Virus record (IMG/VR): IMGVR_UViG_3300010885_015247
Span: 16,837 to 80,836 of that record
From: a virus
DNA: 64,000 bases
Direction: 5' to 3' (one strand)
This document shows positions 16,310 to 64,000 of the stretch, piece after piece (positions within the stretch are counted from its first letter, which is position 1; each line of letters begins with the position of its first letter). Under the pieces are notes generated by a model that worked only from the letters and a program-made list of their open reading frames with translations, ran no database searches and was not told the DNA's origin. The translations under genes were made by a program, and so were the position numbers.

Positions 16310-16873
16310 TTAGAACGGAGCAGACGGTGCTGCTGGAGCAGGAGCTGGTGCTGCTGCTACTGGTGCGGGAGCAGGAGCTGGTGCTGCTGCAGGAGGTGGA
16401 GATGCTGGTGCTGGTGCTGCTGCCTGAGCAGGAGCTGCAGTATCACCTTGCATTGCTGCAATAGTTGCTGCACTTGGAAAATAGTTACGGATTTCGTTCT
16501 TCTTAGCACCGTTATATAAACGACTACCAATCTGTGCACGGAATCTGCGACCAGTTAGAGTCGCTTCAATCTGTGCGTTAGTTGGGTTTGTATCAAAGTA
16601 ATTACGACCAATACCCATTGCGTGAAACTTTTTAAACAACATACCAAGTGCTGCAGGACTGTCTGGTGTTACAACCAAGTTATCCCATACAAGACGCTTG
16701 TTGTAGGGTCCACCTTCAACCTGTGCCTTTAGCTTGAACATTGTCTTACCAGATTGCGATGTTGTTGCAGTTGCTTCTACTACCACTAGATCAAAATCAC
16801 CATCAGGTAGTGGTTCGTAACTGCCAGTTTCACCAGCATCCTTAATTAAGTCAGACCAATTTTTGGTACTCAC
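16310..16873 (-). CDS. DUF669-family single-stranded DNA-binding protein
   Basis: YEPLPDGDF...SQSGKTMF...GPYNKRLVWDNL; Ala/Pro tail ending in PF. Confidence 0.75.
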   Translation of the reverse strand: MSTKNWSDLIKDAGETGSYEPLPDGDFDLVVVEATATTSQSGKTMFKLKAQVEGGPYNKRLVWDNLVVTPDSPAALGMLFKKFHAMGIGRNYFDTNPTNAQIEATLTGRRFRAQIGSRLYNGAKKNEIRNYFPSAATIAAMQGDTAAPAQAAAPAPASPPPAAAPAPAPAPVAAAPAPAPAAPSAPF

Positions 16874-62679: not shown

Positions 62680-63060
62680 GTTTTTGGCTTTTTCAAAATC
62701 GTTCCGGGCTTTTTTTTCTAGAGTTTTTACCCCCTTTTTTATTTATCTTTTTTATTGTTTTTTATTTCAAAATCACTCTAAAAAATCTTACATAAGGCTA
62801 TCTTTTTATTTTTTGTTAAGAAATCGATCAAATGAAAAACTTTTTATTTATTATTTTCTATCTAGGAATCTTCTTTCTTTTCTTTACTACTTCTTCTTAT
62901 CTAAAGTCCTTGAACTTAAATGACCAGTCTTGTTTAATCTAGATAGGTCACTTGATACAAGACTAGTCACCTACCTACCTGCCTAGTTACTGCCTAGTAA
63001 CTTAGGCTCATGTCTTGAAAGTGGTCAGAAATCTAGGTCTAAAAGTGTGACTGGTCATCT
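62680..63060. other. Non-coding T-rich tract and inverted-repeat cluster at the divergence of late and early transcription
   Basis: Runs of T at 62680-62900; TGACCAGTCTTGT (62921) / ACAAGACTAGTCA (62957); GTGACTGGTCAT (63047); AGTTACT-gcct-AGTAACT. Confidence 0.6.
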
Positions 63061-63072
63061 GCCTATTATGTC

Positions 63073-63102
63073 TTGACAAAGTGCAGGAAGGTCGTGTATC
63101 TT
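63073..63102 (+). promoter_or_regulatory. Early promoter P1 (TTGACA-18-TATCTT)
   Basis: Consensus -35; shares an identical 26-nt block with P2. Confidence 0.8.
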
Positions 63103-63149
63103 TATCTTATTGGAACAGGGAGTTCCAATACATACAAAGGGAGAAACAA

Positions 63150-63410
63150 ATGTCATACGGAGTTCAACTTACAGTTAAATACACAGAAGCAACTTCAAAT
63201 GGAACAGTCACTACAGAAAGAGATTATTCTTTCCATGTTGATACCGCATCAAATGCATGCGATTTAATTACTGAAACCGCAAAGAATGCAAAGGAAATGG
63301 GAGCAACCGTATTAAAGGTTAAGGTAACTGAAGAGAATCCAAACTCTTATGAGAACCCTTACCGCAACCTTTCAGATAGCGAAATCTTGGACTTACTCCT
63401 AACCAAGTAA
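63150..63410 (+). CDS. Small early protein
   Basis: Start re-called at MSYGVQ after RBS AAAGGGAGAAAC; lies between P1 and a terminator. Confidence 0.75.
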   Translation: MSYGVQLTVKYTEATSNGTVTTERDYSFHVDTASNACDLITETAKNAKEMGATVLKVKVTEENPNSYENPYRNLSDSEILDLLLTK

Positions 63411-63422
63411 CCGCAAAGAATT

Positions 63423-63454
63423 AGCCCCCCTATCCAAGGGGGGCTTTTTCTTTT
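63423..63454 (+). terminator. Intrinsic terminator
   Basis: AGCCCCCCT-atcca-AGGGGGGCT followed by a T-tract. Confidence 0.85.
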
Positions 63455-63487
63455 CCCGACACGCCGTAAAGCTTTTTCTTTTATAGT

Positions 63488-63517
63488 TTGACAAATGTCA
63501 GGAAGGTCGTGTATCTT
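63488..63517 (+). promoter_or_regulatory. Early promoter P2 (TTGACA-18-TATCTT)
   Basis: Consensus -35 with an AT-rich upstream element; near-copy of P1. Confidence 0.8.
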
Positions 63518-63564
63518 TATCTTAACGGTTCAGGGAGAACCGCAAAACAAAAGGGAGAAACAAA

Positions 63565-63834
63565 ATGACAACACTAGCAATGACCGCAACACTAGCGATC
63601 AACCCAATTCAACTATCTCTAATCGAGACAGCACTAGAGATTGAAATCAAGACATACAGCACAAGCAAAATGAAACTCACTAGAGAACCTGCTCTCCGCA
63701 CTTTTGCTCGTCTTATCGGTGACCCTCTACACCTTCCAAAGTTTAGAGGACTACAAGGACGCAAGGACGCACTTGCAATCGTTAAAGACTTCCTCGCACA
63801 ACTTGAGGACGGCAGGGCTACCGTAGTGAAGTAG
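63565..63834 (+). CDS. Small early protein
   Basis: RBS AAAGGGAGAAAC; lies between P2 and a terminator. Confidence 0.75.
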   Translation: MTTLAMTATLAINPIQLSLIETALEIEIKTYSTSKMKLTREPALRTFARLIGDPLHLPKFRGLQGRKDALAIVKDFLAQLEDGRATVVK

Positions 63835-63848
63835 CCAACTCCCTAAAG

Positions 63849-63876
63849 AACCCCTCGAGAAATCGGGGGGTTTTTT
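63849..63876 (+). terminator. Intrinsic terminator
   Basis: AACCCCTCGA-GAAA-TCGGGGGGTT plus T-tract; GNRA loop. Confidence 0.85.
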
Positions 63877-63889
63877 ATTGGGCGTGTCC

Positions 63890-63918
63890 TTGCAAATGTC
63901 AGGAAGATAGGTTATAGT
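63890..63918 (+). promoter_or_regulatory. Early promoter P3 (TTGCAA-17-TATAGT)
   Basis: Shares AAATGTCAGGAAG with P2. Confidence 0.7.
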
Positions 63919-63966
63919 TCTTTCATAAGCACAGGGAGTGTTTATAAAGAACTAGGGAGAACTAAA

Positions 63967-64000
63967 ATGATAAGCGATTTCTTCGGTAACACAATGGATA
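63967..64000 (+). CDS. Early protein, truncated by the window (MISDFFGNTMD...)
   Basis: RBS AGGGAGAAC upstream; same cassette layout as the previous two genes. Confidence 0.6.
   Translation, partial: MISDFFGNTMD

Follow-up and report, generated by a model that had tools for sequence, protein, structure and literature searches.

Three small genes at the end of a 64,000-nt stretch of DNA from an uncultured lake phage (IMG/VR record IMGVR_UViG_3300010885_015247, positions 16,837 to 80,836; here called the window) are each preceded by a hairpin with the loop AGGGA and a C-G closing pair, located at 63108–63130, 63526–63542 and 63925–63945 of the + strand. The hairpins covary among related contigs, keep a constant position behind a promoter that is itself conserved, and are confined to these leaders. 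We see about even chances that the element acts as a 5′ stabiliser, a stem-loop that would shield the front end of the message and whose loop copies the core of the ribosome binding site (RBS). An earlier, sequence-only reading of the window had listed the three hairpins, and their coordinates, loop and closing pair were all as it gave them.

Hairpins in the window and in related contigs

The first stem base follows the −10 box after 5, 8 and 6 nt in units 1, 2 and 3, in agreement with the 5–8 nt noted from the sequence alone. When the leaders were folded on their own, the hairpin was the minimum free energy structure of each (−10.2, −8.1 and −12.2 kcal/mol; z −2.4, −2.1 and −3.1). The bare word CAGGGAG is not over-represented in the window (5 observed, 6.45 expected), so the signal resides in its context; both strands of the 80.8-kb contig together contain 84 AGGGA words, and none but these three forms the loop of a hairpin with a stem of at least 4 bp. 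A covariance model run with filters off gave them 28.4, 28.3 and 25.8 bits and the next best site in the window 15.8 bits (E 0.23); because identical hairpins were in the training set, the sole informative outcome is that the window holds no fourth copy. Nothing in the entire window reached an Rfam gathering score. At E-values up to 10, no match between 62500 and 64000 came near the gathering score of its family, and the matches by the units lay mostly over terminators. A full-text search of the literature, with supplementary files outside its scope, found no description of the element.

The window is the terminal part of the contig, which has an estimated completeness of 62% and ends at window position 64000, so cassettes were sought in related IMG/VR contigs instead. 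A related portal protein is encoded by more than 597 IMG/VR stretches; the loci used were the best 80 of these and 12 new ones (13 listed), the additional 12 being retrieved with a promoter-to-loop pattern. A 41-nt profile covering only the promoter, with the hairpin excluded, was run over these loci with nhmmer and gave 200 matches. Of these, 137 were distinct with sufficient flank, and 131 were kept after requiring a CAGG box and 90 nt downstream.

The view that the hairpin opens the predicted transcript was supported in these relatives: a hairpin of at least 5 bp, its 5′ arm starting 0–3 nt from the predicted +1, was present in 70 of the 131 leaders, compared with 6.3 ± 2.3 (maximum 15) in 200 shuffles and 6 of 131 in windows shifted by 45 nt. 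The 5′ arm was offset from +1 by 0 nt in 32 leaders, by 1 nt in 21, by 2 nt in 12 and by 3 nt in 5. The loops of the 70 hairpins were AAGGG (29), AGGGA (24), longer with AGGG (6) or A-rich without AGGG (11), so that 59 contained AGGG and 53 were pentaloops.

Covariation in related cassettes, a check suggested by the sequence-only reading, was evident. In an ungapped alignment of 36 distinct pentaloop hairpins, 89.9% of cells were paired (shuffled, 51.9%; slid partners, 31–45%) and double compensatory changes occurred at 8 of 8 pairs, although the rows are a selected set, so that the alignment chiefly documents the diversity of stems and the fair test is a count of words upstream. RNAalifold, unaided, predicted a 6-bp core with a covariation term of −3.35. 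In the unbiased count, 53 of 83 AGGGA or AAGGG words at least 17 nt upstream of a start codon lay in stems of at least 5 bp, and the same words at the RBS position had a stem of at least 4 bp in 0 of 162 cases. Orthologous genes bear different, compensated stems, and one stem can precede unrelated genes, such as two different open reading frames (ORFs) in contigs L060 and L064. Pairing is thus selected while the stem sequence is free. Since stems covary and the loop is kept, selection acts on the structure of RNA (or of single strands), as had been proposed.

The loop follows viral lineage. Every hairpin in the lineage of the window reads AGGGAG from the loop into the closing base; in a sister lineage, with a portal protein about 80% identical, the loops are C-AAGGG-G or U-AAGGG-A, and in a third lineage the same promoter is followed by short, unstructured, A/C-rich leaders. 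No contig mixes C-AGGGA-G and C-AAGGG-G. The loop had been described as invariant, which holds for the window and its close relatives but not for the AAGGG loops of the sister lineage or the 11 A-rich loops. Likewise, the hairpin had been regarded as a tag on all early transcripts, with further cassettes lacking it to count against the idea. All three units of the window carry it, but it is missing from 61 of the 131 promoter copies of relatives, including one whole lineage, and is present on 5 of the 7 family promoters of the complete relative G001. A scan of IMG/VR for loop and RBS, with the promoter omitted, gave among the matches listed mostly unrelated coding sequence and no new lineage.

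The RBS that follows the hairpin is also characteristic of the family. Shine-Dalgarno (SD) boxes of AGGG type occur in 104 of the 131 promoter-proximal leaders, while in a crude call of 61 genes of the contig itself AGGGAG was found 3 times and GGAG-type boxes predominate, bearing out the contrast drawn by the sequence-only reading. Its pairing of loop with RBS did not survive: GGG-type RBSs stand behind 39 of 44 GGG loops, 8 of 9 non-GGG loops and in 30 of 43 leaders without a hairpin, the two-by-two table of loop type and RBS type (39/8/5/1) gives no association, and the spacing between loop and RBS ranges from 10 to 23 nt in relatives. Owing to this variable spacing, helical phasing of the three (C)AGGRAG words (spacer, loop and RBS) as a DNA-binding array was ruled out. 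A CTCCCT at 63840–63845, between the ORF2 stop codon and the terminator, is the exact complement of AGGGAG. The word (CTCCCT or CTCCCC) is kept only in ORF2 orthologues and independently of loop type; pairing of the 5′ and 3′ untranslated regions through it was ruled out as a general feature, being limited to a single gene family with any loop type.

Promoters and layout of the three units

Conservation of the promoter is unusually high through the spacer, with a consensus of cTTGaCAAAGTGCAGGAAGGt...TAnnnT. The −35 box is TTGACA or TTGCAA in 93 of the 131 family promoters, and the first base of the leader is A in 102 of 131. In four distinct promoter copies, the predicted +1, 7 nt past the −10 box, coincides exactly with the start codon ATG of a small conserved gene (MKFLPDSA...). 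This gene is leaderless at L005:2709–2879 (+) and also in L004, L007 and L011; elsewhere its orthologues are preceded by leaders, and one such leader is structured and about 80 nt in length. Leaderless messages are usual in actinobacteria, and an ATG at this position gives indirect yet independent support for the predicted +1. Together with the short predicted overhangs before the window hairpins (0, 2 and 0 nt), the predicted +1 and the position of the leaderless ATG support hairpins that would be 5′-terminal in the transcript. In the sister lineage (L016:3300–3385 (+), L020, L027, L054 and L007), one family promoter drives a closed stem-loop RNA of about 80 nt before a small gene, with an outer stem of AACTTAGTAGGG/CCCTACTAAGT.

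A conserved box occupies the promoter spacers at 63079–63096, 63494–63511 and 63896–63912, and it is probably bound by some factor. The PafBC motif (−26 element) of actinobacterial DNA-damage promoters is tGTCgg(N10)tA(N3)T, with GTC strictly conserved and the −35 element absent (PMC8635444). The second and third promoters match its spacing with TGTCAG, and the first has GTGCAG. Within the family, the spacer box contains GTC in 30 of 131 copies and TGC in 93 of 131; as GTC is not strict and a −35 box exists, they do not fit the definition of PafBC-dependent promoters.

Four readings of the hairpin other than a stabiliser were weighed, and one of them places its function in the DNA, where the palindrome would act as an operator, a cruciform, a hairpin promoter of N4 type for an injected polymerase or a recombination site like those of the PeSL cassettes, at which gene cassettes are shuffled. 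The occurrence of the same leader hairpin before unrelated genes (L060 and L064) is what would be expected of crossover points. However, the stems differ between units, so there is no common duplex operator, and G-U pairs, which occur in hairpin 3 and in hairpins of several relatives, can be accommodated only by RNA. An entire lineage uses the promoter with no hairpin behind it, and leaderless messages start from it with their ATG at +1; it follows that the hairpin is transcribed and is not part of the promoter, and a promoter like that of N4 was ruled out on the same grounds. The PeSL stem-loops lie within or upstream of the promoter and terminate transcription (PMC2839356), unlike the hairpins here. 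We consider a role at the DNA level very unlikely.

The three units lie on the + strand after a 520-nt, A+T-rich divergent gap, and each consists of promoter, hairpin, the RBS AGGGAGAA, ATG, a small ORF and an intrinsic terminator, the third ORF being cut by the end of the contig. Promoter P1 (63073–63102), identified by a consensus scan and by its recurrence in relatives, has a −35 box TTGACA (63073–63078), an 18-nt spacer with the conserved box AAAGTGCAGGAAGG, a −10 box TATCTT (63097–63102) and a predicted +1 at A63109. Leader hairpin 1 (63108–63130) has 9 bp in the DNA, or 8 bp counted from the predicted +1, with its loop at 63117–63121 closed by the pair C63116–G63122. It is followed by RBS 1 (63138–63145) and ORF1, which encodes 86 aa from an ATG at 63150 to a stop codon at 63408–63410. 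Terminator T1 (63423–63449), found by scan, has a G+C stem at 63423–63445 and a T-run after it.

Promoter P2 (63488–63517; TTGACA-18-TATCTT, spacer box AATGTCAGGAAGG) has its predicted +1 at A63524, leaving a predicted 5′ overhang of 2 nt before leader hairpin 2 (63526–63542; 6 bp, loop 63532–63536). RBS 2 (63552–63559) precedes ORF2 (63565–63834 including the stop codon, 89 aa), and terminator T2 (63850–63877), with a stem of 63850–63857 and 63864–63871 and a T-run, was recognised by eye and is unlisted by the scan tool; the same stem with its T-run also stands behind orthologous genes in relatives. Promoter P3 (63890–63918; TTGCAA-17-TATAGT, spacer box AATGTCAGGAAG) has its predicted +1 at A63925, which is also the first base of leader hairpin 3 (63925–63945; 8 bp including one G-U, loop 63933–63937), the predicted overhang being 0. 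RBS 3 (63954–63961) is followed by ORF3, with its ATG at 63967 and truncated at 64000, which encodes 52 aa in the relative L005. The proteins of ORF1 and ORF2, the two complete ones, matched no known family. We infer from the type of promoter and the gene content that the three genes are early.

In three relatives (L002, L086 and L005), the third unit is dicistronic, with an ORF of 40–52 aa that ends in TAATG and overlaps the start of a hydrophobic mini-ORF (MLIA...). Just upstream of P1, the region 62920–63058 carries copies of the palindromic word GACyrGTC (ATGACCAGTC, GACTAGTCAC and GTGACTGGTCAT) and a tandem CTGCCTAGT repeat, and a degenerate second copy of the 5′ half of the promoter lies at 63010–63031. 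The palindromic words, the repeat and the degenerate half-promoter are candidate operator sites for the divergent region.

In L005, the three-unit arm terminates at a bidirectional terminator (L005:5540–5568), so the window probably holds the entire arm, without the convergent half of the island. In L005 and in the island of G001, the three-unit arm meets convergent small genes under the same promoter family. G001 is complete (135 kb, with terminal repeats), and all seven of its family promoters fall within one island of 6.5 kb (L215), where the covariance model has five matches, three of which fall on the counterpart of the window's three-unit arm.

The portal protein matches 877 phage records, all of which (877 of 877) have actinobacterial hosts. 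The top match, at 74%, is the lake metagenome-assembled Actinomycetia phage DSL-LC01, described in PMC10611076, and the next are Microbacterium phages of 186–194 kb, at 58–64%. Judging from these matches, the host of this uncultured lake phage is actinobacterial. A nucleotide search of the phage collection with 62900–64000 as query gave no match, and in DSL-LC01, Pumpernickel, Zooman and Atuin, the cultured or named portal relatives, the promoter is absent, matches being no more frequent than those of a reversed-pattern control; a laboratory system is therefore not at hand.

Possible functions of the hairpin

If the element is a 5′ stabiliser, host RNA polymerase would transcribe each unit from its promoter of sigma-70/SigA type, and the first 17–23 nt of the message would fold into a stem-loop with no more than about 2 unpaired nt ahead of it. 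This 5′ hairpin and the 3′ terminator hairpin would close both ends of a short monocistronic message. A single-stranded 5′ end would thereby be withheld from RNase E, from RNase J and from the preceding pyrophosphohydrolase step. The purine loop AGGGA plus the closing G makes AGGGAG, a copy of the family RBS core, and through it the 30S subunit may in addition dock weakly close to the 5′ end, in the manner of STAB-SD and polypurine stabilisers. AGGGAG and AAGGGG would each be one A-to-G change from a perfect complement of the 16S rRNA 3′ end, with G-U pairing kept, assuming the usual anti-SD sequence. Since A-rich loops occur in 11 of the 70 hairpins, what all of them share is the stem itself. 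A polypurine 5′ stabiliser from early RNA of phage SP82 was reportedly described in Bacillus by Hue et al. in 1995.

Precedents are available for both parts of such an element. Terminal stem-loops at the 5′ end stabilise mRNA in Escherichia coli (Emory et al. 1992, as cited in PMC2358910), and in Bacillus, too, they guard messages against decay that starts from the 5′ end. A 5′ stem-loop followed by an SD sequence protects the gyrase mRNA of Mycobacterium smegmatis (cited in PMC2358910). Polypurine or SD-like 5′ stabilisers are represented by STAB-SD of Bacillus (Agaisse & Lereclus 1996) and by mycobacterial katG (PMC2358910 and PMC7509114). The sequence-only reading had proposed either a stability or ribosome-recruitment tag or a shared post-transcriptional switch; the former is the best fit to known biology, while a switch of CsrA/RsmA type is not sustained (see below).

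Several observations weigh against a stabiliser. Pure end protection does not explain why AGGG is present in 59 of the 70 loops, why 53 are pentaloops or why the loop stays in place (+8 to +10) with stems that range between 5 and 9 bp. The anti-SD sequence pairs poorly with a pentaloop that a stable stem closes. A whole lineage has unstructured leaders from the same promoter, so this class of promoter can do without the hairpin. The alignment rows were preselected for at least 5 pairs, so the inner pairs are paired by construction. Because stabilisation leaves the fixed pentaloop, its place and the homogeneity within lineages unexplained, a dedicated reader and an effect on transcription stay in play.

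A dedicated reader would make the hairpin an address tag for a trans-acting factor, and end protection would then be secondary. The factor could be a protein of phage or host that binds RNA, or else a small RNA whose loop is rich in C. Labelled messages would be handled as a group, for example by shutting off early genes or activating their translation. The constant loop size and AGGG core on freely varying stems are in keeping with such a tag, as are the distance from promoter to loop, which is fixed whatever the stem length, the uniformity of loops within a lineage with a shift between lineages, and the AGGG-type RBS that sets the promoter-proximal leaders apart from the rest of the contig. 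On the other hand, the search of the ORF1 and ORF2 proteins against known families and of the contig for hairpins gave no candidate reader: the proteins match no family, and contig hairpins with a complementary C-rich loop, listed irrespective of coding status, are many, mostly in genes, with none outstanding. The lineage pattern could stem from a single recombination that replaced the 1-kb arm of linked cassettes, and the 11 hairpins without the motif and the 61 promoter copies without a hairpin also argue against a tag. On balance, an address tag is possible but rather doubtful. One form of it, regarded as slightly more doubtful, is a lineage-specific RNA label on the first messages of the phage that a reader would switch jointly, label and reader having changed together between the sister lineages (AGGGAG and AAGGG). 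The host 6C RNA is presumably one candidate for a reader with a C-rich loop.

CsrA/RsmA regulation was the analogy drawn in the sequence-only reading, with a dimeric GGA-binding protein that would bridge the GGA of the loop and the GGA of the RBS and so block translation. The window does resemble CsrA/RsmA sites, having one GGA in a hairpin loop (A-G-GGA closed by C-G, near the A(N)GGA-in-loop rule) and a second GGA in the RBS, 20–21 nt downstream. The resemblance is not shared by the family, where GGA is missing from C-AAGGG-G, the loop seen most often in the sister lineage, and where loop type and RBS type are unassociated. The CsrA domain PF02599 had no match in the contig and four relatives, two of which are complete (135 and 161 kb), and the phages matched by the portal protein are without exception actinophages. 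In actinobacteria, CsrA is not known outside a few flagellated lineages. The analogy is thus unsupported, and a switch of this type is extremely improbable.

The nascent hairpin could instead act on transcription, through promoter escape, a pause close to the promoter by which the first ribosome is coupled, or the loading of an antitermination factor that would read through the terminators between units. The −10 box and the loop are 13 nt apart in each of the three units, and of 26 rows linked to a promoter in the window's lineage 25 keep this register, the remaining one being shifted by 1 nt. The terminator of each unit is directly followed by the next promoter. Three lake metatranscriptomes contained small shares of the stretch, only as four assembled contigs, two of which span a promoter and one of these also T2. 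Such crossing of a terminator and a promoter would suit read-through, which DNA carry-over explains equally, and the contigs are uninformative on transcript starts. Yet each unit has its own promoter, so that read-through is unneeded, and the leaders showed no second element resembling boxA or put and no U-tract after the hairpin, and there is no candidate antiterminator. We judge an effect on transcription to be unlikely.

Comparison with known systems

Freshwater actinobacteria are among the most abundant bacteria of lakes, and the control of phage expression in them is barely known. The module described here is compact (17–23 nt), has a defined geometry (promoter, +1 hairpin, RBS, small ORF, terminator) and recurs in many metagenome contigs. 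A stabiliser would provide a portable, cap-like 5′ part for gene expression in actinobacteria; a loop read by a factor would mark a small regulon of first-expressed phage genes, and the hairpin could then be used as bait. The comparisons set limits on the motif, which is lineage-specific, uncoupled from the RBS and not a CsrA system.

The logic of an address tag resembles that of T4 RegA and of lambda boxB with N. The boxB/nut sites of lambda are small purine-pentaloop hairpins early in early transcripts, with a conserved loop that is read by a phage protein in lambda. Here, in contrast, the stems are variable, the loop sequence differs, each unit has its own promoter, and no boxA partner or N-like gene was found. 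The stretch from hairpin to RBS showed no second conserved box in the alignments, and an N-like protein, small and diverse as this group is, may have escaped notice.

The PeSL cassettes of the T4-type phages RB49 and phi1 (PMC2839356) are similar in that repeated modules of a strong sigma-70-like early promoter, a stem-loop and an SD sequence flank small ORFans and are reshuffled among relatives. However, the PeSL stem-loop is often GGGG...CCCC, lies in or upstream of the promoter and is a terminator (PMC2839356). The hairpins here are downstream of the −10 box and lack a T-run, the terminators being separate (63423–63449 and 63850–63877), so the units are not PeSL cassettes. The SAS/ESAS elements of Cluster K mycobacteriophages are likewise conserved leader signals, specific to actinophages and associated with the start sites of translation, and inverted repeats lie immediately upstream in part of them (PMC3203893). 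The arms of ESAS are sequence-conserved 17-bp repeats with a variable spacer (PMC3203893), whereas the present hairpins vary in their arms and keep the loop.

Closer in kind are STAB-SD of Bacillus thuringiensis cryIIIA, the SP82 polypurine element and katG, each with an SD-like purine run near the 5′ end besides the RBS that is translated from. Their stabilisation is attributed to ribosome binding in PMC2358910. The purine run is single-stranded in those elements; here it forms a loop of 5 nt closed by a stem of −8 to −12 kcal/mol, where binding of the 30S subunit is uncertain, and AGGGAG is the RBS core of the units.

The 5′ stabilisers of E. coli ompA and papA, B. subtilis aprE and ermC and M. 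smegmatis gyrase share with the present element a short hairpin close to the 5′ end and, behind it, an unstructured stretch of leader that carries the SD sequence. In them, too, the stem sequence is free and pairing is kept, and the gyrase mRNA is an actinobacterial precedent (PMC2358910). What sets the phage element apart is that it recurs as a module on several units and that its G-rich pentaloop is conserved and keeps a constant distance from a conserved promoter, its effect on stability being one that we infer. We regard the loop and the promoter family as new, and the element, which lies outside Rfam, as one that would function like the known 5′ stabilisers.

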